DNA of 38,305 bases, taken from IMG/VR virus record IMGVR_UViG_3300029908_000008; one strand, written 5' to 3'. Positions 160 through 38,305 of the stretch are shown here, in pieces. How positions within the stretch are numbered: the stretch's first letter is position 1; every line of letters begins with the position of its first letter. This DNA comes from an uncultured virus (IMG/VR IMGVR_UViG_3300029908_000008). Its lineage: Duplodnaviria; Heunggongvirae; Uroviricota; Caudoviricetes. Under the pieces are notes generated by a model, which was not told the origin of the DNA, ran no database searches, and saw nothing but the letters and a program-made list of their open reading frames with translations. The position numbers and the translations under genes were made by a program.

Positions 160-477
160 TTATTTTAAATACCTCGGACATTTTATCATATTTTTTTTTA
201 ATGCAGAGTAAAATTTTGGAGCAATTTCATTATAACAATTTTTATTCCAAAGATTAATTGTTGATTCTATTTTTGGTCTATGTTTTTTATAAAATTTATA
301 TGATAATTTATCGTAATCTAAAGAATAATAACACATAGGCGACCACTCTAAAAAAACATCATATTTATTCACAAATTCTTCATCAAATTTGTATTTTCTA
401 TACTCTAACATGTTCCAATTGAACAATGCTGGGTTCTTTTCAATTTGTTTAATTATATATTTTGGTATTTTTTTCAT
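160..477 (-). CDS. Trp-repeat family small protein with C-terminal CPRYLK tag
   Basis: 105 aa ORF; KFDEEFVNKYDVFLEW resembles the repeat unit of 672..1253; C-terminal half is similar to that of 672..1253. Confidence 0.75.
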   Translation of the reverse strand: MKKIPKYIIKQIEKNPALFNWNMLEYRKYKFDEEFVNKYDVFLEWSPMCYYSLDYDKLSYKFYKKHRPKIESTINLWNKNCYNEIAPKFYSALKKNMIKCPRYLK

Positions 478-675
478 TTATTTTTTTAAATATTCTGGAC
501 AATCATTAGGAATATATAATTTGAATTGTTTTTTAAACGTATCTTTGGATGTTGTACCGCAATTACTTACATCAAGCACATTTTCATAGTCAACATCAAA
601 TCTTGTAGTAGAACAAACTTTAACAATAAGATTTGTTTTAATTTTACTAATATAAACTTCGCCTGGATTAATCAC
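478..675 (-). CDS. small hypothetical protein with CPEYLKK tag
   Basis: 65 aa ORF; ATGA overlap with upstream gene; similar to 5024..5233. Confidence 0.75.
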   Translation of the reverse strand: MINPGEVYISKIKTNLIVKVCSTTRFDVDYENVLDVSNCGTTSKDTFKKQFKLYIPNDCPEYLKK

Positions 676-1253
676 GATAAGTATTTTGGTTTCACATTAA
701 TTTTATATTTTTTCAATGCTTGATGAAATTTTATATATTCTTCTTTAAGACTTTGGAATCCAGTATTATTTACAAAATTTACAAACGTACTTCTTATTTT
801 ATATTGAAATTTTCTTAGAAATATTTCGGAAATTTTATCGAAATCTACTGCATAACAAATATTAATCCAACTAATTTGTTTAGAATAATCTGTGATGAAA
901 GTTTCTGATAATGGATGTCTTGACAAATTAATCCAAATATATTTATTATTAAATAAATACGCATATTTTCTTAAAAAATCTTCAGAAAAACCTGGCAATC
1001 TTGGTTTTTTATAAAAAATTCCTATCCAGTGTATATATTTAGAAGTATAATCAGAATCAATCAATAATTCTGTGATAAATTCTTCAGAAAGATATTGCTT
1101 GTCACAGACAATATCCCATTCTAAATAATCTTTAAATTCTCTCATAAAATCTTCAGAAAGTATATAATTTAAAGATATATCATACCAAATATATTTTTCT
1201 GGATTTAATCTAATTTTAGATATTTTATTTTCAGTGAGTTGTTTGGGCTTCAT
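672..1253 (-). CDS. Trp-repeat protein (~24-aa LSEDFxxxFxxxxxW repeats) with KPKYLS tag
   Basis: Repeats LSEDFMREFKDYLEW, LSEEFI, FSEDFLRKY, LSETFITDYSKQISW, ISEIFLRKF. Confidence 0.8.
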   Translation of the reverse strand: MKPKQLTENKISKIRLNPEKYIWYDISLNYILSEDFMREFKDYLEWDIVCDKQYLSEEFITELLIDSDYTSKYIHWIGIFYKKPRLPGFSEDFLRKYAYLFNNKYIWINLSRHPLSETFITDYSKQISWINICYAVDFDKISEIFLRKFQYKIRSTFVNFVNNTGFQSLKEEYIKFHQALKKYKINVKPKYLS

Positions 1254-1255
1254 AG

Positions 1256-1756: not shown

Positions 1757-1765
1757 TTACTAGAT

Positions 1766-2482
1766 TCAAGACAATAATGGATTATATCTTGTACCGTCCT
1801 CATCACAATAAATTAGTTCCGCATCAGGCAATACCATCTGACCATTAACAGTGTTAATATTAATAAACAATTCTTCAGACTTTGCTTGTTGCACAACTAA
1901 GTCCTCATTATCATAAATAAAAGTCCATCCTCTAATTTCAGTGAGTGGTTTACCATTGTTATGCAATTCTTCTAATGGGCTTTTTACAGTTACAGATGCT
2001 TTTTCAATTGCTAGTAAATGAATTAATGCTTTTAATAAATGATATGGATTATTTGAGAAGTCACTAGGATAAGTATAAAGCCATGATGATGTACCATTAG
2101 AGTTTTTACTTACATGACAAACATGGCCCGAACTAAATTTAACTTCTGCGGTTTTTAATACATCTGATGCTAAAATTTCAAGAAAATCGTCAATATCAGG
2201 ATTGTTGATAGCCATTTCAAAAACTTTATTGGCTGTCTCTTCCACAATCTTGTCCACAAGAATATCATCATCACAATTAATAAAAGATAAATTTTGAGAA
2301 TCAGCAAAATTGATTGCTCTTAAGACTGCATCATCTTTATTTTCTACGCCTCTGATATGATCCTTAATACCAATTAAACTCCATTCAAGTTCTGATAATT
2401 TACTGTATTCAGCCACATAAAATTTATTATCTTTAGGATTCTCATAGGTAGATATAAAATTTTTATCTTTCTTTTTTGACAT
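1766..2482 (-). CDS. hypothetical protein
   Basis: 238 aa ORF in operon context; no recognised motif. Confidence 0.75.
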   Translation of the reverse strand: MSKKKDKNFISTYENPKDNKFYVAEYSKLSELEWSLIGIKDHIRGVENKDDAVLRAINFADSQNLSFINCDDDILVDKIVEETANKVFEMAINNPDIDDFLEILASDVLKTAEVKFSSGHVCHVSKNSNGTSSWLYTYPSDFSNNPYHLLKALIHLLAIEKASVTVKSPLEELHNNGKPLTEIRGWTFIYDNEDLVVQQAKSEELFININTVNGQMVLPDAELIYCDEDGTRYNPLLS

Positions 2483-2490
2483 AATTATTA

Positions 2491-2721
2491 TTATACAGTT
2501 TTTAGATAGTTTGGCATCAATAATATTTTTCTAATAAATACGAAATTAAGCCTTAAGATAATGTTATTATCGTATAAAATATCATAACAATTTCCAATTT
2601 TGCTAAAAATAGTTCCTTTTCTATGATAATATATATATGCTTGATTTTGACGAGAAAGGCATGTGCTGTATACTATATCTCCAATTTCAAATTCTGTTTT
2701 TTTAATATCTGTTATTATCAT
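2491..2721 (-). CDS. small SH3/KOW-like protein with MPNYLKTV tag
   Basis: FEIGDIV start motif, beta-rich 76 aa. Confidence 0.7.
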   Translation of the reverse strand: MIITDIKKTEFEIGDIVYSTCLSRQNQAYIYYHRKGTIFSKIGNCYDILYDNNIILRLNFVFIRKILLMPNYLKTV

Positions 2722-2915
2722 TTTAATTTTAAATAATCTGGAATTATTGGATTATATAGTTCTAACTCAGAGTTTTCAAAACAAATATCTTCAGTAATAT
2801 CAGTATAATATTCTTTATATTCATATTCAATAATAAATCCACGTTTAAATAAATATTCTTCAAATGCTGGTGGCACTCTGACCACAATCACATAATCACC
2901 TGGTTTAAATTTCAT
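2718..2915 (-). CDS. small SH3/KOW-like protein with IPDYLKLK tag
   Basis: MKFKPGDYVIV...FENSELELY. Confidence 0.75.
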   Translation of the reverse strand: MKFKPGDYVIVVRVPPAFEEYLFKRGFIIEYEYKEYYTDITEDICFENSELELYNPIIPDYLKLK

Positions 2916-3106
2916 TTGCTAAAGTACTCCGGAATTGTTTTAATAACTATTTCACATTCTTCATTTGTTATTTTAAATATAGAATTTTAGATTTTGATAT
3001 ATAAAAATTTATTAATAACTTTAAATACACGACTATATTTTTCATTAATATAATAGGCACAATCAAGAGTGCGAATTAAAGAGCCTACTTTAAATATTTC
3101 GGACAT
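2912..3106 (-). pseudogene. small array gene with internal stop, degenerate tag IPEYFSK
   Basis: Manual translation MSEIFKVGSLIRTLDCAYYINEKYSRVFKVINKFLYIKI*NSIFKITNEECEIVIKTIPEYFSK*; in-frame TAA at 2987-2989. Confidence 0.6.
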
Positions 3107-3282
3107 TCTTTCTCCACAAATTCAAATTCTGTATCTAATAATTCATAAATTTCATCATTAACAATAACACTCGAATAAAGTGTGTCTTGATAATAAACTT
3201 TAGAAATTTCATTTATAATATTAAATCTTAATGCATATTTGCAATGTTTTATTTTTATTAATCGATTTATTATGTTTCTCAT
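3085..3282 (-). CDS. small hypothetical protein with ECPKYLK tag
   Basis: Track ORF 3085..3303; the more likely start is the ATG at 3282, overlapping the upstream stop (ATGA). Confidence 0.7.
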   Translation of the reverse strand: MRNIINRLIKIKHCKYALRFNIINEISKVYYQDTLYSSVIVNDEIYELLDTEFEFVEKECPKYLK

Positions 3283-3443
3283 TTTAATAAATATTTTGGA
3301 CAATTAATTCTAGTAATTTCTTCTTCTAAAAACATATGGCATTGGTTGCTAATAGTTACGTAGTAAAAACCAAAATGATAAAGCGCAACCGAGCCGATGC
3401 CTTTACAACTTTTAATTTTATCTCCAGTTTTATATTTATTCAT
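3279..3443 (-). CDS. 54-aa SH3-like protein with NCPKYLLK tag (not in ORF track)
   Basis: Manual translation MNKYKTGDKIKSCKGIGSVALYHFGFYYVTISNQCHMFLEEEITRINCPKYLLK*. Confidence 0.7.
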   Translation of the reverse strand: MNKYKTGDKIKSCKGIGSVALYHFGFYYVTISNQCHMFLEEEITRINCPKYLLK

Positions 3444-3505
3444 AATTTATAAATATCTATACTTATAATAGTAGCCATATCATTACTAGGAAATGTTTCT
3501 AGAGT

Positions 3506-3709
3506 TTAAATTTTATTTATCAAATAATTCGGTTTAATAATTGGTTTATAATAATCTAATTCGGATTCATGATAATTACCAATATATTGGAAACCTTCCA
3601 TACTTTCTAATCCAAAATAATATTCAGAGCCAATTCTATTTACAGAATAAATTTTACATGATTCTCGATAAAATGGCCTATGTACAACAATATCGCCTTT
3701 TTGATACAT
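3506..3709 (-). CDS. small SH3/KOW-like protein with KPNYLINKI tag
   Basis: MYQKGDIVV...YHESELDYY. Confidence 0.75.
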   Translation of the reverse strand: MYQKGDIVVHRPFYRESCKIYSVNRIGSEYYFGLESMEGFQYIGNYHESELDYYKPIIKPNYLINKI

Positions 3710-3718
3710 GATTTATTA

Positions 3719-3945
3719 TTATATTTTCATATATTTCAGACATTGTTTATTAGATAATCTAAATTCATAGTAATATAAACTTTGATAATTATAACGAATT
3801 TTCTGGTTTTTGTAAAAATTATCACATGTTCTTAAAATCATTACAGTAAAATGGCTCTCGTCAACTTCGATAATTTTACACGCTTGATACCATAAACTCT
3901 TTCATAAATTAAGATATTACCTTCTTTAATTTGCGATTTTATCAT
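3719..3945 (-). pseudogene. frameshifted small array gene, degenerate tag QCLKYMKI
   Basis: MIKSQIKEGNILIYE then a frame change near 3900 to SLWYQACKIIEVDESHF...FRLSNKQCLKYMKI*; resembles 3950..4195 (ACEVIE, FRL). Confidence 0.6.
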
Positions 3946-3949
3946 TTAT

Positions 3950-4195
3950 TTAATATTTAAGATATTCTGGCCGTCGGTATAACAGTCTAAAACCATTTTC
4001 AGACAATGTAAATAAATCGCCTGGCATAAGATTTCCACCATTAATTTTTGGATTTATTAAACTGATCTTTATGCATCCTGTGTATCCATAAATTGTGTGT
4101 ACATTAGTTTCAATTACTTCACATGCAGTATTAACTAAATCTTCAATCCATTCAGCACCAATAAAAACTAACTTATCACCAATATTGTATGTCAT
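3950..4195 (-). CDS. small SH3-like protein with RPEYLKY tag
   Basis: Track ORF 3950..4213; likely start MTYNIGDKL at 4195 (ATGA overlap). Confidence 0.75.
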   Translation of the reverse strand: MTYNIGDKLVFIGAEWIEDLVNTACEVIETNVHTIYGYTGCIKISLINPKINGGNLMPGDLFTLSENGFRLLYRRPEYLKY

Positions 4196-4398
4196 AATAA
4201 ATACTCCGGACAATTATTCAATAATCTTAAATTGTTTTCTGTAAAATCGATTTGATGCGCTGGTAAATCTGATGGATGAGTTCTGTAATAACAGTTATGA
4301 GTATCTAAAAAATACCTAATTTCCACTATTATACAAGGCGAATCTGGCCAGTATCCAGAAATATCCATAACTTTATCGCCAATTTTGAATTTACTCAT
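4192..4398 (-). CDS. small SH3/KOW-like protein with NCPEYLL tag
   Basis: MSKFKIGDKV...FTENNLRLL. Confidence 0.75.
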   Translation of the reverse strand: MSKFKIGDKVMDISGYWPDSPCIIVEIRYFLDTHNCYYRTHPSDLPAHQIDFTENNLRLLNNCPEYLL

Positions 4399-4499
4399 TA
4401 TAGTTTTTATTTTTGTTGGTAAATTTTAATATCAATTATATTTAACAAGATATTTCTTCGTGAAATAAATATCACCAATTTTATTTATAATGGTTATAA

Positions 4500-4733
4500 T
4501 TATTTTAAATAATTTGGACATTTTTTAAATAAGTATGGAACAAAATATTTTATAAAATCTACTTTAAAATCCAAATAAAAGTCAAAAGCATAATCAAAAT
4601 TACAATCAAAATTATTGTCAAAATAATTGTTGCCATAGTATATGTATTCAATACTTTGATTATTAGTTGATATTATCTTGACTAGTTCATAACTTTTTTT
4701 ATCAATATATACATTATTTATTTTTAAAATCAT
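4500..4733 (-). CDS. small protein with KCPNYLK tag; paralog of 4821..5027
   Basis: Likely start MILKINNVYIDKK at 4733; shares MILKxNNxYIDK, NQxIxYxY and FxKYFxPY with 4821..5027. Confidence 0.75.
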   Translation of the reverse strand: MILKINNVYIDKKSYELVKIISTNNQSIEYIYYGNNYFDNNFDCNFDYAFDFYLDFKVDFIKYFVPYLFKKCPNYLK

Positions 4734-4815
4734 TTTAAATATTTTTGACAATTCATTATCAATTTTAATTCTGATTCAACAAAATATATGATAAAAATAA
4801 CATATATTTTGACGG
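4730..4815 (-). pseudogene. 3' remnant of a small array gene, degenerate tag NCQKYLK
   Basis: Frame reads YVIFIIYFVESELKLIMNCQKYLK*; no convincing start. Confidence 0.5.
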
Positions 4816-4820
4816 ATTAT

Positions 4821-5027
4821 TTAGGCTTTATTATTTTTTAAATAAAAAGGACATTCTTTAATAGGATATGGAAAAAAATATTTTGTAAAATTAAAATCAT
4901 AATTCCAATCAAGAGAATCATGGCCATGAATATATTCATAACTAATAGTTTGATTTACATAACGAGTTATTTTTACTATATGCTGTCGCTGTTTATCAAT
5001 ATATAAATTATTTGTTTTTAAGATCAT
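4821..5027 (-). CDS. small protein with ECPFYLKNNKA tag
   Basis: Likely start MILKTNNLYIDKQ at 5027 (ATGA overlap). Confidence 0.75.
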   Translation of the reverse strand: MILKTNNLYIDKQRQHIVKITRYVNQTISYEYIHGHDSLDWNYDFNFTKYFFPYPIKECPFYLKNNKA

Positions 5028-5233
5028 TTTTTTAAATATTCTGGACAATTAATTTTGTTTTTATACAAAGTAAAAATCGATGCCGCGAATGATATAGTAT
5101 GCATATATGTATATGGATGTTTATCAGAAAGTTTTCTATACTCTAAAAAATCATTATCAACTTTAACTATTTCTATAATTTCTTCATGCCCCGACTTATA
5201 CCTACATACATAAAATTCGCCCAGTTTAAACAT
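5024..5233 (-). CDS. small protein with NCPEYLKK tag
   Basis: 69 aa, MFKLGEFY start; TAATG overlap with the infA stop. Confidence 0.75.
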   Translation of the reverse strand: MFKLGEFYVCRYKSGHEEIIEIVKVDNDFLEYRKLSDKHPYTYMHTISFAASIFTLYKNKINCPEYLKK

Positions 5234-5484
5234 TATTTAATTCTTTTAGTGATTCTACCATTCAAAAGATCATATGGCGATAATTCTACCACAACTGTAT
5301 CTCCAACTAAAATTTTAATATGATTTTGTTTCATTTTACCAGCAATATATCCACTCACCGTTAAATTATCACCAATATCTACAGCAACACGCGCATTTGC
5401 AAATATCTCCTGTACTATACCTGTGACCTCAATTGCTTCTTCTTTTTGTTTTTCTTGTTTTTTAATTATTTTATTTCTTCCCAA
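5233..5484 (-). CDS. infA: translation initiation factor IF-1
   Basis: KEEAIEVTGIV...YIAGKMKQNHIKILVGDTVVVELSPYDLLNGRI closely matches the IF-1 S1-domain consensus. Confidence 0.93.
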   Translation of the reverse strand: MGRNKIIKKQEKQKEEAIEVTGIVQEIFANARVAVDIGDNLTVSGYIAGKMKQNHIKILVGDTVVVELSPYDLLNGRITKRIK

Positions 5485-7603
5485 ATTTTAATTTCTCCTT
5501 AAATTTATGGTATTGTTCTTTTTCAATGATTTCACTCATGTCGATGTATTTCTCAGCGATTTCTCTAATAGAATCTTTTCCCAAATATGATTGTGTGCTA
5601 AGAATTATTGATAATTCCATTAGAAAATCAATATTATCCTTGAGCATTTGCAAACATTCCTCCCGAGCATTATCTAAAATATTATCCATATTACTATCTA
5701 AAGTATTGTACATGGCTTCTCCAAAATATAAATCTCTTGATATTTCCATAAGATTTGAAGTAAGCCCAGACATGACTAAACTCTGTGCTAATGAATTTGC
5801 TTGCGTGATATCACTTCCTGCACCAAAACAACGATTTTCATCACCAAAAATTAACTCTTCTGCTAATGTCCCTGCCAAACAAATTTTAATTTGATTAATA
5901 GCAGATTTTTTAGTAAGATGTTTATTGTAATTGACTTCCATAAAACCTAAACTATCACTATCTGCCGTTTTACTTCTTACTGATTTTGGAATGATTTTTT
6001 CATAAATAATATGAGCCACAACATGCCCTGCCTCATGAACTGCGACAGCCGCTTGTTCTTCAGAATCATCAGATTGCCTCAGATTGTCCATACTTAATTT
6101 AATTGGATAATTAAATTCTTGATTATTAATTTTAACATCATGAATACTATCTTTATAATCCCAAACAATTTTACTCACATTGCCTAGTGTAAAACAATCA
6201 ATTAATATATTTGGCATATATGATGTAATATGTGTGGAAATAGTGTGAAGAACAGGTCTTGCACCTTGAGTTGGTACAACTCCTTCTTTATAAATTAATT
6301 CCCTAATATTATCCGTAAATTCAAGGTCAATATTATAATGAGTTTTAAATTTTTGTTTTTCTCTGATTAAATTAAGGTCAATTAAACTATAATAATCATT
6401 CCTACTAAACGCCTTGTAAATAAGAAAATTATTACCCATTCTAGATAATTGTTCAGGACGATATAATTTAAGCAAACTCTCTTTCACAGATTGTGCTGTA
6501 ATTTTCTCAGAATTCTCAAAGAATGTATCTGGATCGATATCTGGATTTAATTCTTTGCTTACACCATAAGCGGAATCAATATTTGCTAATGTAAAAATAA
6601 CAGACTGGGATAAATTAATTGAAGCCATTGATGTAGAAATTATTTTAATGATTTTTTTCAAATAATCCACAATATTTTTAGCAGAGTCTAATTCTTTGAT
6701 TTTGTTAAAGAACACTTTATAATCTTTTTGATAATCAAAGAATGATGGCGCAGAATCATAAAGAAAATTATACGTAGACTCTGGAACGAATGGTAATTGA
6801 GTAAAACCACCAGTAAGTCTTTGTAATGAATTAATTTTTTCTGCATAAAGGTTTGGATTTGAAAGATAATATCTAAAATCTTCCATTTCCTCACTAAATT
6901 CTTCATCTTTTCCGCGCGGATCTGAATCTAACAATTCACATTTATTATCAAAAAAATCTTGCCAGCATACTACATATTCTTCATCAGTGCCATATGGTAA
7001 ATTACATTTATTAAGAAATGTGCGATAATTTTCTTCATCATTTACAATTATTCCATTTTTTACTTGAATTTTAGATTCTAAACATTGAGTATAACCGTTT
7101 AACAGCACCCTAGAAATAGAATTATCTATTGTAAGGTTTACCACACCAGAATCAAGTAAATCCCAAATATCTCTCAGAGAACCTCTTTCTAATTCGTCAC
7201 CTTCTTTATCTAGAGTTCTTCCCAATTGAAATTCATCGAAACAAATAATTGATTGTTTCGGATAATAAGTCTTATAAAAAGTATGAAGATCTTTTCCTAA
7301 TTTGTCATTTGCTTTTGTTGCGTAGTTACCTACGTCAATTCTTGCATAGTTGTCTTTCAAATCCAGCAATTCTACAAGCCGATTAATTAATGAGGTTTTC
7401 CCACATCCGGTTAAACTAACTAAATTAATAATAATTGGCTTTGTGAGAGATTCTGGAAGAATATAAAAAGGTTTAATTAATTGCATTAATTCTGCAATGA
7501 CGTAATCAATTCCCACAAATTCTTTTTTAAGTTGTGATTCAATCTGATTAAGATGATTCTGACGTTTAAGGATATCTTGTTGACGTGTTTTTGTAATTTT
7601 CAT
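5471..7603 (-). CDS. soluble AAA+ ATPase fused to an M41 (FtsH-type) zinc metallopeptidase
   Basis: Walker A SLTGCGKTS, Walker B ICFDE, Clp-like RPEQLSR and GARP, then HEAGH and LAGTLAEELIFG...GAGSDI; no evident transmembrane segment. Confidence 0.85.
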   Translation of the reverse strand: MKITKTRQQDILKRQNHLNQIESQLKKEFVGIDYVIAELMQLIKPFYILPESLTKPIIINLVSLTGCGKTSLINRLVELLDLKDNYARIDVGNYATKANDKLGKDLHTFYKTYYPKQSIICFDEFQLGRTLDKEGDELERGSLRDIWDLLDSGVVNLTIDNSISRVLLNGYTQCLESKIQVKNGIIVNDEENYRTFLNKCNLPYGTDEEYVVCWQDFFDNKCELLDSDPRGKDEEFSEEMEDFRYYLSNPNLYAEKINSLQRLTGGFTQLPFVPESTYNFLYDSAPSFFDYQKDYKVFFNKIKELDSAKNIVDYLKKIIKIISTSMASINLSQSVIFTLANIDSAYGVSKELNPDIDPDTFFENSEKITAQSVKESLLKLYRPEQLSRMGNNFLIYKAFSRNDYYSLIDLNLIREKQKFKTHYNIDLEFTDNIRELIYKEGVVPTQGARPVLHTISTHITSYMPNILIDCFTLGNVSKIVWDYKDSIHDVKINNQEFNYPIKLSMDNLRQSDDSEEQAAVAVHEAGHVVAHIIYEKIIPKSVRSKTADSDSLGFMEVNYNKHLTKKSAINQIKICLAGTLAEELIFGDENRCFGAGSDITQANSLAQSLVMSGLTSNLMEISRDLYFGEAMYNTLDSNMDNILDNAREECLQMLKDNIDFLMELSIILSTQSYLGKDSIREIAEKYIDMSEIIEKEQYHKFKEKLKFGKK

Positions 7604-17513: not shown

Positions 17514-17554
17514 TCTATATTATAATTAATACTAAACAGAATCTAATCCTCTAT

Positions 17555-29057: not shown

Positions 29058-30072
29058 TATTCCCCAATCCTACAGCACCAGGAGCAGAACCGTGGTATTT
29101 GTCTGCTACACCCATTGTCTCAGTGAAAGCATCCCTAGTATCACCCAAAAATAAATCTAACCTCATTGTTTTACCAGGCCCATCAGGCAAACGCATCAGA
29201 TCTTCTAATCTTTTATCCTCTAATCCTTTCTCTCCACCTGGTTTTTTCTTATTTTTAGATTCCTGATTCTCCACCTCTTTAGCAATTTCATGTGTGCTAA
29301 TATCTACAGTTTTATAAGGTTGTTCTTTATCTTGAGGATGATCGAATGCCAATGTCTCTCCATATAATCCATTAAAATCTTCGTCATAAGGCGCGTTAAT
29401 CCAATCCATTACACCCTTTCCATCTTTATATTCGTGAAATCTTTTACTTCCGTCAGGAGGTGTGGTAAATTTTAGAATATCGAATGGCGACCTTTGATCA
29501 TCGTCTTCTTCATAGCCCAAGAACGGTGATGTTCCTAGCATTCTATCTGTAATAATTGCTAAAGTTTGTTTTTGAGATAATGAATGCCTACGGCTTGGCC
29601 TGATTGTTGGAGGGTTGTGATCCTCAAACGGGTGTTTTTCAGAGTCATCATTCGTCCGCGCGGCACTTAGTAATACTTCAAAACAAACTTCTAATACTTT
29701 TTCCGGTGTCCGATCTTTTTCGGGCAATTCAGAAACTTTTTTCTCAAATCTTAATTTTTTATCTGATTTATCAAGTTCAGTGCGCTGTTTATCAGTTAAT
29801 GCTACACCTTTTTTATCATTTTCAATATCACTATGAAAAATTTCTAATCTTTTTTCTAAATTAATTTTATCATCACTATATGATGGGTCAAATTTTCTAT
29901 GAAAATTGTTATCTAATGGAGTTTCATAATAACGATTAATTTGTCCAGCGCCCATAGCACCTGGCCCTTTACCAAACCCTAGCCCTCCAGGAGCAGTTGG
30001 ATTAAAGCCGAGATTACCGCCTCCAAATTGAGCCAAAACTTTTCTCACACTTTTTTGTAATCTCTCTGACAC
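29038..30072 (-). CDS. hypothetical head-cluster protein
   Basis: 344 aa, GTG start; KVLAQ followed by a Gly-rich segment. Confidence 0.75.
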   Translation of the reverse strand: MSERLQKSVRKVLAQFGGGNLGFNPTAPGGLGFGKGPGAMGAGQINRYYETPLDNNFHRKFDPSYSDDKINLEKRLEIFHSDIENDKKGVALTDKQRTELDKSDKKLRFEKKVSELPEKDRTPEKVLEVCFEVLLSAARTNDDSEKHPFEDHNPPTIRPSRRHSLSQKQTLAIITDRMLGTSPFLGYEEDDDQRSPFDILKFTTPPDGSKRFHEYKDGKGVMDWINAPYDEDFNGLYGETLAFDHPQDKEQPYKTVDISTHEIAKEVENQESKNKKKPGGEKGLEDKRLEDLMRLPDGPGKTMRLDLFLGDTRDAFTETMGVADKYHGSAPGAVGLGNIGFSNA

Positions 30073-30111
30073 GAATATAATTTAAGTTAAAAATATATTT
30101 TGACCTTTATA

Positions 30112-32193
30112 TTAAGGTGTGTATACTGTCAGTCCTCTTGGCAAAGGCTTTGCCATAATTTTTGCACTCAATATTTCATAACAGACTGCCGCTATTGCAT
30201 CTGGGATATCATCATGTGCGCCACTCATTGCCTCTACACGATAATACTTTCCATTAAATTTCTTTTGCAATGTTTTAAATTGTGTTTTCAATAAATCAAT
30301 TTCTTGTAGTTGGCGAATTCCAGTGACTTCTATTACTGTAGTGTTGTAAGTATAAATAAATATTTTATTCTGCACAAATAATTGATATAATTGATCATAA
30401 ATAGATTCTTTATATTGTCTTGTGAATGTACGGCATATAACATTAATTCCATTACTTTGTAGTTTTTGAATAGATCCCAAACTATTAAATTGGTCATAAC
30501 TTACCTGTTTGAATCTAAACTTTCTATGTAAACTAATTACATAATCTGCCACAAGTTCCATATTAATTGGATTATTTGAAGACGGCTTCCAATAATGAAT
30601 ATGATCTATATAAACATCAGGAGATTCATTTGCCCTGCCTGAAGCAATACTATGCCCCACAACAACCACATAATAATCGTTTGTAGCAGAAGGATCAATA
30701 TGGCAAAAATATCCAAAACTTGGATTAGTAGATTGTTCAATCCTGGGCGTAGGAAACATGAATGCAGGCTCAATTAAATCCATGTCAATCCAACTTTCTG
30801 CTTCTGTGGCACCAAATATAGCACCATATTGCATAGCAAACGTTTTATAATCTTTAGATTTTTCTTCATCCAGCCAGTCTTTAGGAATACTTGGATTAAT
30901 TATCCAAGTTGGCAACTGTAAAACTAATGTTGATGGAGTAATTTTTCTATTTTGATATAATTCATAAAGTAGACCCTTGGCACCCTTAGGCTGAGACAAT
31001 ATAAAAAATTTACCATCTTTACCAAAGGTCGCTATCGTGGGAAAAAGGTCTTCGTATAATTGATAATCAACACCTCTAACAAGACTGCCATCGGCAGTGG
31101 CCATCGCGGCCACCTCATCCATTAATACGCACCAATTTGTTCCTCCAACGAGAGATGATGCATTCGAGTGACCACATTTAATTACAATACCACCAGGTAT
31201 TTGAGGCAAACCTTGTAAAATTCTTTTTTTATTGTCTACTATATTTTGTTCTGTTAAAAAATATATTTTATCTTCTAATGGTTTTCCTCCAAGCCGTTCA
31301 ATAAAATACGGAGAATCAAACACAATAGATTTAATTTTATTAAAAACGCCAGTATCAGCCTGGTCACTACTTGCCGCGACGTTTAAAATGCCAATTGGCT
31401 CTGTTTCTAGCAGATTATATCTTTTATGAGGATTTTTCATCTCTAAAAGTTTATAAGCCTCATATAAACTACAAATTGTAGTCATAAAACTTTTCGAACC
31501 TCTTCTCCCTATCACTAAAACTAATTCTTGGAACTTATTTCCTAATTTGTTTTCAATTTGTTTTCTTATTTCCTGATTAAATTCCGGATCATTTAACAAA
31601 TCGTATTCTGAAGAATAATTATCAAAACAATTTTGTTTTTCAATTCTGTCATATTTATTTTCTTCAGATAATGATGATGCTTCTTGCCTTAGTGATTCAA
31701 ATCTTAATTTTCTATCTTTTTTATTAAACCTTGTACATGTGAGGCATGGAGAATTTTCCACAGGAAGCATTGATTTTTTTATAACCGTGTCCCCATTTTT
31801 AAAAGATTCTACAGCAATTAATTCTGTGATTTTAGAATAATTCCACACACAACTATCACAACCATTATCCACTTTTAAATCATCTAATTTTAAATTTTGA
31901 TTGCCTTCGTTACCCATGTAAAATAATTTTAAGATTAATTTCTGCCATGGGTGCAGTTTCATACCACAATAATATGGATGTTCTGCGAAAGTGAGTACAT
32001 CAACAATTTGATCAGGATTATATTTGGATAGTTCTGGTTTTTCAGGCGCAGAAATAGATGTTTTTGGTGCGGCTAATTCAGGCTTGTCTTCTGCGTCAAA
32101 TGTAATTTCTAATGCAGATAATTTATCAATTAACTGTAGTTTTGCTAATTGCTCTTCTCTTTCCTTAGGACTAAGTTTTTTAGATTTAGACAA
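30112..32193 (-). CDS. terL: terminase large subunit
   Basis: LHPWQ (Q motif), Walker A GRRGSKS, Walker B VLMDE, coupling motif LSQP, RNase H-like HIDPS..D, SYDQF, HDDIPDA. Confidence 0.92.
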   Translation of the reverse strand: MSKSKKLSPKEREEQLAKLQLIDKLSALEITFDAEDKPELAAPKTSISAPEKPELSKYNPDQIVDVLTFAEHPYYCGMKLHPWQKLILKLFYMGNEGNQNLKLDDLKVDNGCDSCVWNYSKITELIAVESFKNGDTVIKKSMLPVENSPCLTCTRFNKKDRKLRFESLRQEASSLSEENKYDRIEKQNCFDNYSSEYDLLNDPEFNQEIRKQIENKLGNKFQELVLVIGRRGSKSFMTTICSLYEAYKLLEMKNPHKRYNLLETEPIGILNVAASSDQADTGVFNKIKSIVFDSPYFIERLGGKPLEDKIYFLTEQNIVDNKKRILQGLPQIPGGIVIKCGHSNASSLVGGTNWCVLMDEVAAMATADGSLVRGVDYQLYEDLFPTIATFGKDGKFFILSQPKGAKGLLYELYQNRKITPSTLVLQLPTWIINPSIPKDWLDEEKSKDYKTFAMQYGAIFGATEAESWIDMDLIEPAFMFPTPRIEQSTNPSFGYFCHIDPSATNDYYVVVVGHSIASGRANESPDVYIDHIHYWKPSSNNPINMELVADYVISLHRKFRFKQVSYDQFNSLGSIQKLQSNGINVICRTFTRQYKESIYDQLYQLFVQNKIFIYTYNTTVIEVTGIRQLQEIDLLKTQFKTLQKKFNGKYYRVEAMSGAHDDIPDAIAAVCYEILSAKIMAKPLPRGLTVYTP

Positions 32194-32196
32194 GTT

Positions 32197-32874
32197 TTAC
32201 CCCGCCTCTTCAATAAGTTTACGCCTAATCTCACCAACTTTTAATTGAAGAATTTTTTTACAACTAACACAACTCAATTCATTGTAAATTTCTAAAAGAA
32301 TAGAGAAAATGTCAATACTATTTTTTGCGGCTTCATCTCTTCTTTGTTTAACATTAGCAATACGGTCAGTTATTTGATTTGCCATCGCGGCCTGCTTAAA
32401 TTTAAGTTCAGGATTTTTACTACAATCTATCGCTCGGATTTCATCTAACTCTACTAACAATGCTGTAAGTATAAAATCGTTCTCTCTAAACTTAATTTTA
32501 GAGATACTTGATTCTCTGGATAAATAATCTTCAATTCCGCCTAAACTTAGTCCTCTAAAAGTACAATGGTACTTCATATGAGTAGATACAGCCTCGTGAG
32601 TCACTTTAGCATGAAAATGATCTTCAAAAAACTTAATTACAGATTGTGGCTTTTGTTTATTTTGAATATAGACATGTTCCGCCCTTTCTCGCCAAGGCGA
32701 ATTACACAGACTACATCTCGTATTATGTGTCGTGGGATACGACAAGTCAAACATGTCGTCAGGAGGAAGTGGTATATACTGAACACTATTCTCAGTAAGA
32801 TCTTTTAAATATACAACTGTACTCGCAAGGCTAGAAGATCCTGTATGGATCTGAAATAATACCGGTTCTGACAT
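32197..32874 (-). CDS. putative terminase small subunit
   Basis: Immediately upstream of terL; CxxC...HxxxH N-terminal domain and helical C-terminus; positional inference only. Confidence 0.45.
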   Translation of the reverse strand: MSEPVLFQIHTGSSSLASTVVYLKDLTENSVQYIPLPPDDMFDLSYPTTHNTRCSLCNSPWRERAEHVYIQNKQKPQSVIKFFEDHFHAKVTHEAVSTHMKYHCTFRGLSLGGIEDYLSRESSISKIKFRENDFILTALLVELDEIRAIDCSKNPELKFKQAAMANQITDRIANVKQRRDEAAKNSIDIFSILLEIYNELSCVSCKKILQLKVGEIRRKLIEEAG

Positions 32875-32897
32875 ATATGTCTTAATTCAAGACATAT
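32875..32897. promoter_or_regulatory. inverted repeat abutting the start codon of 32197..32874
   Basis: ATATGTCTT-aattc-AAGACATAT. Confidence 0.5.
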
Positions 32898-32923
32898 TAA
32901 GACTTAGCCTTTATTTTTCAGAG

Positions 32924-33622
32924 TTAATCAGAGAGGGCTCTTAAAATTCTTGTATATGGAGAAACCTTGTCATGCGCAGAAACTAGAAACTCATCGGCCA
33001 AGCCAAATTTAGCGTAGTTACCTTTATTAAAAACTTCGTTATTAGACGTGCCTTCCATTAAATTAACAATCGCTTTTTTATTTCCAACTTTAACTTCATA
33101 CTTAGTTCCAGCCTTTTTAATAAAGCACTGTTTCTGTTCTGCTTCTAATACTGAATTTAACATAATTTCTTCAAAATAAGGTTTGAGTTCTGCATGAATA
33201 TGTTTCATTAGCGATGCATTTTCAAAACAAGTTTTTGCCAATTTTAAAAGATTTTGTTTGTGAGATTTGGAGGCTTCGATAATTGGAAATTCAGAATTCG
33301 TAAGGTCATTTACAAAAACCTCTGGACCATCATGAAAAAGGTTGTGTTCAACAACATGCATTACATCATCATAAGATGTAGGAACAACAAAGGCTTCGCG
33401 TTTTGCATATTTTTTAGATTTTAATTCTCCAAAAACACTATCTAAGACTTCCTTAAGTCCTTTTAAGCCAAAGCCATTTCCAGCAAGAATTTCCTCTGCT
33501 TCATCACGGTTGAAACCTTTATTTTTGAGTGACTGACATTCTGCTGATGCTTGAATATGTTTAGCATTATAAGAATTGCCTAGTTTGTTGGACCAATTGA
33601 CGATTGTATCGAAGTCTTCCAT
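32924..33622 (-). CDS. hypothetical protein
   Basis: 232 aa ORF. Confidence 0.75.
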   Translation of the reverse strand: MEDFDTIVNWSNKLGNSYNAKHIQASAECQSLKNKGFNRDEAEEILAGNGFGLKGLKEVLDSVFGELKSKKYAKREAFVVPTSYDDVMHVVEHNLFHDGPEVFVNDLTNSEFPIIEASKSHKQNLLKLAKTCFENASLMKHIHAELKPYFEEIMLNSVLEAEQKQCFIKKAGTKYEVKVGNKKAIVNLMEGTSNNEVFNKGNYAKFGLADEFLVSAHDKVSPYTRILRALSD

Positions 33623-33677
33623 TTTATAATTATATAATTATGTTTTTATAAAATAATATAACATTAATATTTTATTT

Positions 33678-34199
33678 TTATAAAGATAATATTTTTTTTA
33701 GATTTTTAGCACTTCTTTCTAGTAATTTTGAAAATGCCGATTGAGTAATTCTCATAAATATAGCACAATCTTCTTGGCTCATTTCTTTAAAGTAATAGAG
33801 TGTAACGGCTAATTTTTGCTTTTCTGGTATTTGTAATAAAGCATTATTTAAATCATTTGAAAAATTAATTCTATCAAATGGATTACCTGGGTCCATTATT
33901 GATTCTGAAATTTCTGATGCAATAATCTGGGTTGTTCTTGTGCGGGACAATAAATTTCTAAAAAAATTAAGTTTAATGTAATATCCGAAGTTAGATAATT
34001 CTGGATTGTATTTTTTTAATAATTCAACAAATAAAATATCAGCCTCTTGCCCTAAGTCTTCTAGGAGCATATGATTTTTTACAATTGGGTATATTTTACT
34101 AATTGTAGATTTTATTAATGGCCTATAATAATCTAAAAGATTATTTATTTCTAATTCCTCGCCCTGATGTGCTTTAATTATGGTATTTTTTAAATCCAT
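33678..34199 (-). CDS. RNA polymerase sigma-70 family factor (regions 2 and 4)
   Basis: LLDYYRPLI...EDLGQE...YNP...FGYY; region 4 IPEKQK..V.LYYF.EMSQ.D.A....ITQSAFS. Confidence 0.88.
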   Translation of the reverse strand: MDLKNTIIKAHQGEELEINNLLDYYRPLIKSTISKIYPIVKNHMLLEDLGQEADILFVELLKKYNPELSNFGYYIKLNFFRNLLSRTRTTQIIASEISESIMDPGNPFDRINFSNDLNNALLQIPEKQKLAVTLYYFKEMSQEDCAIFMRITQSAFSKLLERSAKNLKKILSL

Positions 34200-34217
34200 T
34201 ATAATATTATTCTATAT

Positions 34218-34907
34218 TCAGTTCATTAATTCTTCTAATATTTTTAATGTAGCAAAATAACTATCATTATTTCTTCTGGAAATAATTAATTTTTGTGTAA
34301 TATCTTTCAATCTAAATAATTCATTAAATCCAAGCACTTTTGCTACAGGTGATAATTTCTTAATTTTATATGCATGAATATTTTTATCACCAGACAATAT
34401 TTGCAAACAGGAGTCAATCGCATCATTCACAACCCAAAAATAATTCTCTTCTGATGACTTCAGTACAAAACTGTATTTAGACATTATTTCATCATATTTT
34501 TTCGCCAGGAATAACTCTGAAAATTCAAATACATTATATAATGGCTTTTTCTCTCCAAGAACTTTTTTGTTGGAAAAATATTGCATTAAATCATAAGCGA
34601 AAACTGAATATGTAGGATTTTTTAAATCTTTAAATTCAGTTAAAGGCACATCCTCATAACAATCATTAATATTGAGATATGGATTCATTAAAAATTCATA
34701 ATTTAATTTAATATATTCAAATATATGATCTGAATTTTTTCTAATATATCCACAACAGACTAATATAGTTCCGAAATCCAAATCATCAATATTGTCTTTT
34801 GAAGACCTAGAAATTACAATATTTGATTTGTTTAAAATGGACCCTTTACTCGCGATTTCTTTAGCAAGAAAAAGAGCCTGATATTCATCACCAGAAATAA
34901 TTACCAT
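34218..34907 (-). CDS. clamp-loader delta (HolA)-like subunit, divergent
   Basis: N-terminal IISGDEY, NVFEFSEL and HAYKIKK motifs resemble Pol III delta; next to the clamp gene and near dnaX. Confidence 0.5.
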   Translation of the reverse strand: MVIISGDEYQALFLAKEIASKGSILNKSNIVISRSSKDNIDDLDFGTILVCCGYIRKNSDHIFEYIKLNYEFLMNPYLNINDCYEDVPLTEFKDLKNPTYSVFAYDLMQYFSNKKVLGEKKPLYNVFEFSELFLAKKYDEIMSKYSFVLKSSEENYFWVVNDAIDSCLQILSGDKNIHAYKIKKLSPVAKVLGFNELFRLKDITQKLIISRRNNDSYFATLKILEELMN

Positions 34908-34915
34908 AATTAAAA

Positions 34916-35896
34916 TTAAATCGATGCAAAATAGAAATTATCATCAAAAATACAGAAAATATTTTCATGATCAGGGTGAATTCCAAAAGAAATGTTATCT
35001 TTAAACAATGGAATTAAATTTTCAATATCTTTAATTTTAAACTGTATTTTAATATTACCTTTAGATTCAAAAGAGGTTTGAAGGGCGCTACTATTTTCAC
35101 TATGGGATCTCATTTTAGCAATATCATTTTCTATGATGATATTCACGTTCCCATGGTTGATTAAGTGGGGCGCAAAATAGGTTAAAAATGTTTGTTTATT
35201 AATTGTGACGAATTCATACGACTCTTTTATTACATCTTTAAAGGGGTTAATTTTATCTGGCGTATTGTATACTGGGCAAGATAAAAAACCTCCGTCTTTT
35301 TCATTTAAAGAAATTGTATCTTTCTTTTTTGAAAGTTGAATTGATGAATTCATTAATGATAACGCTTGTGGAAAACTCTTCTCCACACTAATATCCAGAT
35401 TGTCATAATTATATGATAAAATTTTAGCACTATCTGTAACAAAAAATCCTTTGTCAGAATCTAAATGAATAAGATTTGTTGGGTATTCGATTCCTGTAAA
35501 TTTAAATGCAGTGAGAAGAAGTTCTTTATTTAATTTAATTTCACTTGTACCAGAGTTGACAGATTCTGGTAACTCAAAATTAAGATCATCCTTGACAATA
35601 ATAATGAATTGAATCGAGTTATCACTGTTGGAAATCATCATTTTTTCTTTTTTAACAGAAAGATTTGCAATGCCATCACTAAAATGTTTGAGTAATGCAG
35701 GCAAAGATGAAAAATCTCCAATATATGAGTTGTTTTCTGTAGACTTTCCTACATTCATATAATAGAAGTCTTTATCATCATTCATCAATACTAAATACAG
35801 ATTATTATCAATAGCATGAAGAACTTGTGAATTCCATTTTTTTGTTTTATAAATTTTTTGATATATTGAGGTTAGTTTAGAACTTTCTATTGTCAT
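34916..35896 (-). CDS. DNA polymerase III beta sliding clamp-like protein, divergent
   Basis: 326 aa with a three-domain beta-clamp-like pattern (FVTDSAKI equivalent to VATDGHRL); context with dnaX. Confidence 0.6.
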   Translation of the reverse strand: MTIESSKLTSIYQKIYKTKKWNSQVLHAIDNNLYLVLMNDDKDFYYMNVGKSTENNSYIGDFSSLPALLKHFSDGIANLSVKKEKMMISNSDNSIQFIIIVKDDLNFELPESVNSGTSEIKLNKELLLTAFKFTGIEYPTNLIHLDSDKGFFVTDSAKILSYNYDNLDISVEKSFPQALSLMNSSIQLSKKKDTISLNEKDGGFLSCPVYNTPDKINPFKDVIKESYEFVTINKQTFLTYFAPHLINHGNVNIIIENDIAKMRSHSENSSALQTSFESKGNIKIQFKIKDIENLIPLFKDNISFGIHPDHENIFCIFDDNFYFASI

Positions 35897-35916
35897 ATTT
35901 TATAATACTTTTTATT

Positions 35917-36570
35917 TTATTCTGAGATATCATCGATTTGAATATCATTATGAACTTGCTCACCATCTTGAGTGTTAATGATATCTAACAATTGTGCTTT
36001 TGCACGGACCCTTGATAAGGAGTTGTCTACGGCTTTCATTTTTACTTTTAATTCTTTAGATATTTCTTTATAAGAATAATGTTGAATATAAAGATCTAAA
36101 ACATTAATTTCCAATTTGGTTAAATGTTCAATTAATGCAAATCTATGTTTGTAAAATGCTTCTCTGTCAGCATAATCGCTTTGCATATCATATGTATGAT
36201 CTTGGATAATATCAGATAATGTCGCTTCATCATAATCATGAGAAATCGGTGTATCTAAAGATGCGGCAGAATTATGAACAATAAATTTCTTCCTATTCGC
36301 ATGACTGACAGTAGTAATTATATGCCTACGTATTACAACATTAATAGAGAAGTTTTTGAAAGACATTCCTGCTTCTGGTTTAAAATCATTAACCGCCTTC
36401 CATAAGGCAATTCTTGATTCTTGAATAAGATCAGAGTCATCGGAACCCGCAATAAATAATTGCGAAGATGATAACATTTTTTTTATATCATTTGATAATA
36501 ATTTAAATAATTCTTGTAACGCTTTATCATCATTTTTAGCCTTTAAAGCCAAGTATTCTATTTCATCCAC
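35917..36570 (-). CDS. SigH (Spo0H)-like sigma-70 factor
   Basis: FIAGSDDSDLIQE..IALWKAVNDF...SFKNF...IIT.V..ANRK...SLD; LTKLE..VL.LY...YSYKEIS..L....KAVDNSLSRVRAK. Confidence 0.88.
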   Translation of the reverse strand: MDEIEYLALKAKNDDKALQELFKLLSNDIKKMLSSSQLFIAGSDDSDLIQESRIALWKAVNDFKPEAGMSFKNFSINVVIRRHIITTVSHANRKKFIVHNSAASLDTPISHDYDEATLSDIIQDHTYDMQSDYADREAFYKHRFALIEHLTKLEINVLDLYIQHYSYKEISKELKVKMKAVDNSLSRVRAKAQLLDIINTQDGEQVHNDIQIDDISE

Positions 36571-36632
36571 ATTTATTAATATACAATATTAAAATAATAT
36601 ATGAAATACTTGAAATATTTTAAAAGTAATAA

Positions 36633-37628
36633 CTATTTTTTAGCAGAACAAAATGCTAAAATTTTAAAAAAGCATAATTGAAAATTAAGATTACTCGGTA
36701 CAGCAGGATTTATATTGTTAATATGTTGAAAAATAATATCATCTATTTTGACAAGACTGTTTTGACCTGCATTTTTTAAAAATTCGGTGGAATTGCCAAT
36801 TATTTTTTCTGATATTTCTGATGTAACAATATTAAATGCCTCTTTCAATGCTTCATCAGGATTAATATTTGATTTTAAAATTTGTGTAATTGTATTAATA
36901 AGTTTTTGTTTATCATTATTAAAACAACAATAAAACAATTCTTTTATTAATGACTCCGGCGCGGAACCCATTATTGATATTATATTGTCTTCAGTCGCGC
37001 CAATTTTAATAAATTGAGACAATAACATTAATGACTCTCGAAAACTCCCATTGGAGTTTTTAGCAATAATCTCTATTGAGTCATCATATTTTATCTTTTC
37101 TGCATCTGCCACTTTTTTTAAAAGATCAATAATATCAGGTATTTCAGCATCGTTAAATTTTACTTGTAAAGATCTGGACTTTAATGCTTGAACTAATTTT
37201 TTAGGTTCAGTTGTGCAGAGGATAAATGTTAGAAATTCTGGGGGATTTTCTAGAATTTGCAAGAGAGAATTTTGAGATGTAGAAGAAAGCATCTGACATT
37301 CATCTAATATCACATATTTTCTAGATAATTGCCTTGGCGGTAGATTACATTTATCAATAATTAACTCTTTAATCTGATCTACACCACCATTCATGGCACA
37401 ATTATATTCTATAAAATCACTTAGGCTATTGAGATTTTCAATATTTTTATTTTCTATTTTAGAAACTAAAATTTTTGCCGCGCTTGTTTTACCGCATCCT
37501 GGGCTTCCATAAAACAAATAGCAAGGCGCTATATAATCATTTAATAATTCAAAGATTCTTTGAATATTTTTTTGCCCAAGAATATCATGGGTAGATTGTG
37601 GACGATATTTTTCTGCTAGACTTTTCAT
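36633..37628 (-). CDS. dnaX: DNA polymerase III gamma/tau-like clamp-loader ATPase
   Basis: LAEKYRP...DILGQ, Walker A GSPGCGKTS, ILDECQML, LENPP...FILCTTEP, KSRS, GSFRES. Confidence 0.88.
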   Translation of the reverse strand: MKSLAEKYRPQSTHDILGQKNIQRIFELLNDYIAPCYLFYGSPGCGKTSAAKILVSKIENKNIENLNSLSDFIEYNCAMNGGVDQIKELIIDKCNLPPRQLSRKYVILDECQMLSSTSQNSLLQILENPPEFLTFILCTTEPKKLVQALKSRSLQVKFNDAEIPDIIDLLKKVADAEKIKYDDSIEIIAKNSNGSFRESLMLLSQFIKIGATEDNIISIMGSAPESLIKELFYCCFNNDKQKLINTITQILKSNINPDEALKEAFNIVTSEISEKIIGNSTEFLKNAGQNSLVKIDDIIFQHINNINPAVPSNLNFQLCFFKILAFCSAKK

Positions 37629-37822
37629 AAATTTAAATAACTTGGTCTTGTATTTGCTGTGCGATAAACATGATCATTTTTTAAAATAAAATCTTTATGT
37701 ATTATGCGATCAATTTCCTGTTGGGGTACCTGTTTAGATAGATATCCGGATATAAAAAAATAATTTGTGCTATATTTACTCATTATTTCATATATTTTTA
37801 GCGACAATTCTGAATCAGTCAT
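37625..37822 (-). CDS. small hypothetical protein with RPSYLNL tag
   Basis: 65 aa; ATGA overlap with dnaX. Confidence 0.7.
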   Translation of the reverse strand: MTDSELSLKIYEIMSKYSTNYFFISGYLSKQVPQQEIDRIIHKDFILKNDHVYRTANTRPSYLNL

Positions 37823-38051
37823 TTTTACTTAAATACTCCGGTTTACAAATAAAAGGTATAGTAGAAACTAGGCTTTGTTTTGGATCTGTGTCGTCAAAAA
37901 TAAAATATTCTGAATTTACCATGAGCAATCCGATACCTTTTATATGGTCATAATTTTCATAAAATAAATAATATAATTTATTTTCTTCAATAGAATTATT
38001 GTGTTCTAAAATTATTTTTCTTATTATAGTCACAATTTCATTTTTGGTCAT
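37815..38051 (-). CDS. small hypothetical protein with CKPEYLSKND tag
   Basis: 78 aa ORF. Confidence 0.7.
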   Translation of the reverse strand: MTKNEIVTIIRKIILEHNNSIEENKLYYLFYENYDHIKGIGLLMVNSEYFIFDDTDPKQSLVSTIPFICKPEYLSKND

Positions 38052-38054
38052 TTT

Positions 38055-38204
38055 TTATTTTAAATACTCTGGCTTCTTATTTACAATTACAACATCATAA
38101 TAATAATCGTCTTGAATCATTTTTCTAATTAAATATAATAATTTATAATATTGTACAAATAATAAAGGTGACAATATACTAAATAAAGAAGAATAATAAG
38201 TAAA
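38055..38204 (-). pseudogene. gene remnant or very short ORF ending KKPEYLK
   Basis: Frame reads ...LIRKMIQDDYYYDVVIVNKKPEYLK*, bounded upstream by an in-frame TAG at 38205-38207. Confidence 0.5.
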
Positions 38205-38305
38205 CTAAAAAACAATTATTTAAAGAATATGGGAAGAAATTCAGTAATATACCTGAATTGTCATATTATTTAGAAATAACTGTGTGTAAGTGATTCGGTG
38301 TCCGA

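Follow-up and report, generated by a model that had tools for sequence, protein, structure and literature searches.

A recurrent P-x-Y-L tail on small accessory open reading frames of an uncultured peat phage as a candidate near-C-terminal peptide motif

The capsid targeting sequence (CTS) of phage T4 is an N-terminal peptide that is cut off by the prohead protease. The degrons of the ssrA tag, the ClpX C-motifs and FtsH substrates lie at the extreme C terminus and are LAA-like. Among docking motifs are the acidic C-terminal tails of T7 gp2.5 and gp4 and the beta-clamp motif QL[SD]LF. At the DNA level, PeSL units consist of an intergenic early promoter and a stem-loop, and Arbiol et al. reportedly described them in 2010 as mobile regulatory cassettes at the borders of small open reading frames (ORFs) in the hyperplastic regions of T4-type phages. 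Here we analysed 38,305 nucleotides (nt) of DNA from an uncultured virus of the Caudoviricetes (IMG/VR record IMGVR_UViG_3300029908_000008; hereafter the window), in which small ORFs at both ends, the left and right arms, finish at or close to the residues P-x-Y-L (hereafter the tail). The explanation that we favour, with moderate confidence, is that the tail is a translated, lineage-specific, near-C-terminal short linear motif, P-x-Y-[L/M/F], on several unrelated families of small accessory proteins.

Strict P-x-Y-L tails were found on 16 ORFs, 13 in the left arm (160-5233) and three (R1, R2 and R3) about 32 kb away in the right arm, all on the minus strand and all with the motif 0-6 residues from the stop. 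The right-arm endings were exactly those given in the initial annotation (RPSYLNL for R3, CKPEYLSKND for R2 and KKPEYLK for R1). Among the 143 ORFs of at least 30 amino acids (aa) that begin with ATG, 14, every one of them on the minus strand, carried P.YL among their final 10 residues, where 0.28 were expected from the rate of internal P.YL; 200 block shuffles yielded on average 0.2 tailed ORFs and never more than 2. Copies of the DNA word CCNNNNTATTTA numbered 13 on the minus strand, against a single one on the plus strand. Twelve of the 13 minus-strand words were ORF tails and the thirteenth lay in frame within a DUF192 gene, so that none was non-coding or out of frame. Furthermore, the frame of P-x-Y-L was that of the upstream ORF in all 16 strict copies and in three degenerate ones. 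The residue before the motif was mostly C, K, R, I or M and the one after it mostly K; at the position of L we found M twice and F twice (in the related contig L164, described below, and in the degenerate copies). Cysteine was present in 9 of the 16 tails, in eight of them directly before the proline and in R2 with a lysine between.

From the recurrence of the tail in the right arm, the initial annotation had proposed a genome-wide signal. This scope did not hold up: the tail was absent from all 26 larger genes between the genes for initiation factor IF-1 and the clamp loader. The signal, though real, is thus a property of the small accessory ORFs and not of the whole genome. Within the arms, the ORFs at 1766-2482 and 1256-1756 and two very short ORFs lacked it. 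DNA of the window occurs in peat metagenome runs, and its small proteins are found on contigs of up to 162,305 bp, which indicates that the window is part of a larger genome. The initial annotation had suggested extending the contig and counting tagged ORFs in other accessory regions. One further tailed protein, P0161 of family A (start MTKLKIGDKV, end KCPNYLKTIL), has its gene neither in the window nor in the 21 kb of L164 that we examined.

The carriers of the tail fall into several protein families. All-against-all BLASTP of the left-arm proteins defined family B (two members, E 4e-18), family C (1-159 and the two longer genes of Table 1, E 1e-9 to 1e-16; a repeat family matching phrog_3532) and family A, a looser set with an xKxGDxV start. 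A and B proteins aligned over their full length, and the P and Y of the tail were the sole invariant columns, in 11 of 11 sequences. Searching with an A/B profile recovered seven proteins of the window, the member in L164 and the new protein P0161 (E 0.085). A local tandem duplication, against which the initial annotation had argued, does explain many of the left-arm copies, given the full-length A/B alignment and the shared DNA; no homology of R2 and R3 to the left-arm families was detected. The best BLASTP E values of R2 and R3 against all left-arm ORFs were 0.087 and 0.24, and hhalign gave probabilities of 0.7% and 0.1% against an A/B profile from which the tail had been removed. Full-length similarity was thus seen within A/B and within C, and not between R2 or R3 and A/B. 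In agreement with the initial annotation, which gave the left-arm start as FxxGDxV, the xKxGDxV start was absent from all three right-arm ORFs. Its statement that these proteins begin with helices could be followed for R2, the only one modelled: a low-confidence AlphaFold2 model (mean pLDDT 52) placed a helix at residues 3-16, followed by three strands and an unconfident tail. The model of a family A member, also of low confidence, was all-beta (pLDDT 64) and matched nothing in Foldseek at E<=0.001; the weak rows were small beta-barrels (KOW, PWWP and PsaE), a hint only. Protein searches with R2 and with the 5024-5233 product each returned only the query itself, R2, R3 and the A/B family had no match in Pfam or PHROGs, and the top score of R2 against the ESM Atlas (0.77) was under the lead level. 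BLASTP, hhalign and the retention of the tail at the same position in L164 all bear out the initial claim that some of its carriers are of types unrelated to the xKxGDxV family of the left arm, and the conclusion that the right-arm proteins are of another type holds on these grounds.

The only close relative of the window was L164, an 83-kb metagenome contig of which 21 kb were examined. Its clamp loader is 78% identical to that of the window, with synteny downstream of this gene, and the ORFs at the positions of R2 and R3 end NCPEYMKNG and EIPKYFKEIQ. BLASTP found no significant match between these ORFs and R2 or R3; MAFFT alignment gave 24 identical columns over the 78 residues of R2 and 24% identity for R3. 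R2 and R3 are probably fast-evolving orthologues of the L164 ORFs, and R2 is an ORFan except for this probable, 33%-identical counterpart. The tail was retained in L164 though the protein bodies had diverged to about 25-33% identity. Between the window and L164, the R2 tail differs by CCG/CCA, GAG/GAA, TTA/ATG (Leu to Met) and two whole-codon indels, the pattern that would be expected from selection on the peptide. In the A-family member of L164 (P0160), the motif reads P-A-Y-F and is followed by 11 more residues.

Family C allowed us to compare tailed proteins with a large set of relatives. The 672-1253 product, cut before the tail (183 aa), was searched against 1.84 billion representatives and matched 1515 proteins at E<=1e-3. 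Among the best 150 of these, only the 99%-identical P0002 carried the tail, and the end FPIYI of P0011 was judged to be chance. Because this widespread family is otherwise without the tail (148 of the 149 others among the best 150), the tail has been added to a pre-existing family, in this lineage only.

We also searched for close relatives, of which no cultured one was found, and for further copies of the DNA motif. Megablast of 30000-38305 against phage records gave no match, tblastn with the terminase matched 369 records, all below 60% identity (22.6-25.9% among the matches listed), and relatives of the clamp loader reached at most 34% identity in IMG/VR and 32% in species genomes. A scan of IMG/VR for a single DNA motif returned at least 119 stretches with one copy each. 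Across 123 loci (43 with clamp-loader relatives and 80 pattern matches), three had one tailed ORF and the rest none, compared with 14 in the window. A scan for two motifs separated by 175-205 nt returned 25 IMG/VR stretches, of which four had one tailed ORF, one (L212) had two, which we judged to be chance, and the rest had none. No RNA run was among those listed as containing the window, and the portions of the literature brought up by our search held no description of such a tail.

We next weighed this explanation against others. A possible though rather unlikely alternative is that the conserved unit is a nucleic-acid element with the peptide as a by-product: 17-25 nt of the form TGTCCnnAnTATTTAAA (coding strand) at cassette borders, acting as recombination microhomology and/or as the initiation region of the next gene. 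Such an element would account for a 22-nt block in six copies at >=82% identity, a 27-nt block in four copies at >=78%, GGAG or GAGG in 4 of the 16 copies, always with a gene start 2-12 nt later, and the motif-like start region of 23496-24788, which reads GGAGTATATAAAA-ATG. A further set of observations weighs against selection on the peptide as a complete explanation, and among them the indel, the island of identity, the enrichment of CCG and GAG and the motif remnants also speak for a DNA element. Several copies share 15-23 identical nt, including the codon before the tail and beyond what the peptide needs, which means that many copies are related by descent and are not independent. The independent carrier lineages number about six (A/B, C, the 3085-3282 singleton, R1, R2 and R3) and, as the A/B copies are related by descent, the constancy of frame is worth roughly (1/3)^5 and not (1/3)^15. 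If R2 and R3 are orthologous to the L164 ORFs, their tails were inherited and not newly gained in each phage. The models that differ between R2 and family A (helix then strands against all-beta) have pLDDT values of only 52 and 64. Contigs from 3 of 4 runs carry an indel (4416-5029) that removes both B genes, with its edge right after the 5024-5233 tail. In a contig from run X6, the body of 478-675 is 84% identical to the window, with 13, 12 and 9 differences by codon position, while the 49 nt of the tail and the 12 preceding codons have 0 differences and the sequence downstream is unalignable; this island of identity suggests homogenisation at the DNA level or a joint left by recombination more than peptide selection alone. 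These population contigs are 150-740 nt long with a depth of 2-6, and the parts that they leave uncovered are uninformative. Codon choice is likewise skewed: the proline codon is CCG in 5 of 16 tails (8% background), the glutamate codon GAG in 3 of 6 (15%) and the leucine codon TTA in 13 of 16 (53% in the arms); it is the CCG and GAG codons that produce the GGAG or GAGG noted above. Finally, two motif remnants, 4735-4760 and R1, have no substantial ORF and lie directly upstream of starts. What speaks against a DNA element is that the frame is constant in 16 of 16 copies, with none out of frame or non-coding, whereas an initiation region would be indifferent to the upstream frame. Moreover, variation among the copies is found at the wobble and x positions of frame 0, alternative-frame wobble positions being invariant, and the tail differences between L164 and the window are synonymous bases, Leu to Met and whole-codon indels. 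Three of the 16 tails (at 4850, 4517 and 3532) are followed by about 60-100 nt without an intact gene, the motif is absent at the starts of many arm genes, and no copy has a local inverted repeat or hairpin. At 2-21 nt, the spacing between motif and ATG varies more than a promoter -10 element or a fixed ribosome-binding site would permit.

Plain common descent, in which every tailed ORF would derive by duplication and divergence from one small gene whose last strand and tail evolve most slowly and have no tag function, we judge to be improbable. It fits the full-length alignment of A and B with its invariant P and Y, the weak full-length BLASTP links between the two families (E 1e-4 to 3e-4), the identical DNA common to several copies, the apparent orthology of R2 and R3 to the L164 ORFs, and a conserved stretch that reaches upstream of the tail as hydrophobic-x-hydrophobic-Y/L, 3-5 residues and PxYL. 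It does not fit family C, which is large and independent and whose other members among the best 150 almost all lack the tail, nor the absence of similarity of R2 and R3 to the A/B profile, and the carriers range from 21 to 193 aa with differing predicted secondary structures. Chance in AT-rich DNA, where TAT-TTA-AAA would be common near stops, could be invoked because words like TATTTAAA are common at 25-28% GC and TAT, TTA and AAA are preferred codons. Given the excess over expectation and shuffles, the strand asymmetry of 13 to 1 and the near absence of tailed ORFs from the comparison loci described above, this possibility is effectively refuted. Our own reading is that the peptide is selected and that its coding DNA is probably also a site of cassette recombination.

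Under selection on the peptide, the carriers would belong to one lineage of large uncultured peat phages and comprise the SH3-like A/B proteins, the helical-repeat C proteins, the 65-aa singleton and R1-R3. The tail would serve as a common docking or recognition handle with one partner as its reader, which may be the phage's own soluble FtsH-like AAA+ protease or a host hub protein. The 17-50 nt that code for the tail could double as a crossover point for the duplication, loss and swap of cassettes, and recombination there would explain how unrelated ORFs gain the tail. The motif ends 0-6 codons before its own stop and the next start is mostly 2-21 nt away; if another gene begins close behind, a Shine-Dalgarno-like GGAG or GAGG may be accommodated in the motif's unconstrained positions (the proline wobble and the x codon). 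If the docking handle is real, one peptide would mark a set of unannotatable ORFans as clients of one partner, identification of that partner would give a pathway to about 20 proteins, and the tail would be usable as a portable tag. Since it lies at cassette borders, it would illustrate concretely how recombination within a coding motif could connect new phage genes to a system already in place.

The AAA+ protease is encoded at 5471-7603. Its 710-aa product has a Walker A/B AAA+ module, a Clp/Hsp100 D2-small domain and the M41 peptidase motif HEAGH, and no membrane segment was noticed on reading its sequence. It had no relatives in IMG/VR or in species genomes and one match in 50,697 phage records, over 22% of the query. 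By its adjacency to the left arm, this protease is a candidate reader of the tail. A degron reading is attractive but grounded in this adjacency; we consider it quite improbable that the tail is a phage-specified degron by which early host-takeover mini-proteins ending in P-x-Y-L-K are cleared on schedule by this protease, with the tag DNA as the recombination joint for new cargo genes. The variable distance of the motif from the C terminus makes for a poor fit to ssrA-type recognition. If the degron reading is true, the virus would encode a timer based on proteolysis and a tag code specific to it.

Table 1. Tailed ORFs, degenerate copies and neighbouring genes of the window. C-terminal ends are given up to the stop codon.
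Feature	Coordinates	Strand	Length (aa)	C-terminal end	Remarks
Family C	160..477	-	105	KCPRYLK	
Family A	478..675	-	65	DCPEYLKK	GTG start
Family C repeat protein (phrog_3532-like)	672..1253	-	193	VKPKYLS	
Family A	2491..2721	-	76	LMPNYLKTV	
Family A	2718..2915	-	65	IIPDYLKLK	
Degenerate tail	2916..2932	-		IPEYFSK	End of frame-broken family A gene 2916-3106
ORF without clear family	3085..3282	-	65	ECPKYLK	Next ORF begins within the tail DNA, ATG at 3106
Family A	3279..3443	-	54	NCPKYLLK	
Family A	3506..3709	-	67	IKPNYLINKI	~60 nt to next gene
ORF with degenerate tail	3719..3841	-	40	CLKYMKI	
Family A	3950..4195	-	81	RRPEYLKY	
Family A	4192..4398	-	68	NCPEYLL	
Family B	4500..4733	-	77	KCPNYLK	Followed by ~100 nt without an intact gene
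Degenerate motif copy	4735..4760	-		CQKYLK	No ORF of its own; directly upstream of next family B gene
Family B	4821..5027	-	68	ECPFYLKNNKA	Length counted from ATG
Family A	5024..5233	-	69	NCPEYLKK	
IF-1 homologue	5233-5484	-			Pfam eIF-1a, E 1.6e-16; AAGGAG Shine-Dalgarno before start; directly upstream of the tailed array
Soluble AAA+ (Clp/Hsp100 D2-small-like) and FtsH-type M41 zinc peptidase fusion	5471..7603	-			Two genes upstream of the left-arm array
DnaX/clamp-loader-type AAA+ gene	36633..37628	-			Pfam DNA_pol3_delta2, E 2.3e-16; downstream of R3
R3	37625..37822	-	65	TRPSYLNL	Tail codons 37634-37645
R2	37815..38051	-	78	CKPEYLSKND	Tail codons 37830-37841
R1 mini-ORF	38055..38174	-	39 or 21	KKPEYLK	39 aa from TTG at 38174 or 21 aa from ATG at 38120
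R1 tail codons	38061-38072	-			

The stop of R2 overlaps the ATG of R3, and the stop of R3 overlaps the ATG of the clamp-loader gene (Table 1); R1 could be either a genuine mini-gene or the remnant of a gene's end. A metagenome contig of 6441 bp (L163, at its base 1), independent of the window and 100% identical to it over the clamp loader, stops at the very same base (38305); a genome may terminate there, or a repeat may have interrupted both assemblies. Both arms lie on the same strand. A promoter scan did no better than shuffles in the left arm (74 sites against 65) and found 42 in the right arm (20 in shuffles), the latter not at the motif. A SigH or T4-late-type promoter at the motif was rejected on inspection, GAAT occurring in only 4 of the 16 copies and the distance to ATG varying over 2-21 nt.

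The left arm also contains decayed members of the mini-protein family, at 4399-4499, 2916-3106 and 3719-3945 on the minus strand. The first of these stretches is without an annotated gene and holds a 29-aa alternative-frame ORF with KIGDIY, and the gene at 3719-3945 is split into ORFs of 34 and 40 aa. In tails of the C-P type, the base before the cysteine codon always makes ATG or TTG in the -1 frame. This -1 frame start is the start of the next ORF at 3106 and is in frame with the next gene's ATG at 4213, 5048, 3303 and, for the remnant, at 4751, and the tail DNA may thus be dual-coding, with some downstream genes starting inside it. In the contigs that lack the B genes (4416-5029), 12 other letters stand at the joint, a presence/absence polymorphism of the cassette. 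At 188-374, contig depth was 31-566 in all four runs, compared with about 0-9 elsewhere, which indicates that part of the family C repeat gene matches abundant other peat metagenome sequences.

The window as a whole has phage genes, ranges from 25 to 41% GC and carries nearly every gene on the minus strand. Besides the genes of Table 1, it codes for a major capsid protein of the HK97 fold, a large terminase, a Mu-like portal and two factors of the sigma-70 family, of which one is closest to SigH models. The Mu-like portal (17555-19861, minus strand) has a C-terminal DUF559/MTES_1575 endonuclease-like domain, and in the 1366-aa protein encoded at 13413-17513 (minus strand) residues about 50-240 match prohead-protease families. 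In L164, the terminase ORF (15334-18525, plus strand) has 1063 aa, compared with 693 aa for its counterpart in the window, the C-terminal ends of the two being similar, and an additional domain seems to interrupt an RNR-like ORF (5607-7547, minus strand); inteins are possible in both L164 ORFs.

None of the described systems to which we compared the tail (the T4 CTS, C-terminal degrons, docking tails and PeSL) fully covers it. With the T4 CTS it has in common that one short peptide on several small, otherwise unrelated phage proteins would be read by one partner; in contrast to the CTS, the motif of the window lies 0-6 residues from the C terminus in 16 of 16 cases, and its carriers stand in accessory-gene arrays and not among head genes. 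The likeness to AAA+ degrons consists of a short C-terminal peptide on many proteins, with an AAA+-M41 gene two genes upstream of the left array as that of a candidate cognate protease. Such degrons have a fixed register with a free C terminus, whereas 0, 1, 2, 3, 4 or 6 residues follow the motif in the window and 11 follow it in P0160, and the motif is polar and aromatic. CaaX boxes, sortase LPxTG signals and heme-regulatory CP motifs were also rejected because register or residues misfit, cysteine being present in only 9 of the 16 tails. Docking and clamp-binding motifs resemble the tail as terminal short linear motifs that share a hub, and two of the carriers, R2 and R3, immediately precede the clamp-loader gene; the tail differs in having no acidic run, and most of its carriers are accessory mini-proteins without a replication signature. 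As a beta-clamp-binding motif, whose consensus is QL[SD]LF or a related penta- or hexapeptide with Q, it was rejected, since none of the 16 tails has Q at the motif. PeSL and attC elements are intergenic and have a stem-loop or inverted repeat, whereas the copies described here are parts of ORFs, keep one frame and show neither hairpin nor inverted repeat, and no integrase was seen in the window. Like PeSL, the tail is a short conserved sequence that recurs where small accessory genes adjoin. The surrounding region has candidate indel and mosaic joints, namely the indel at 4416-5029 in 3 of 4 runs and the 49-nt island of identity in one contig, both drawn from short, low-depth contigs.

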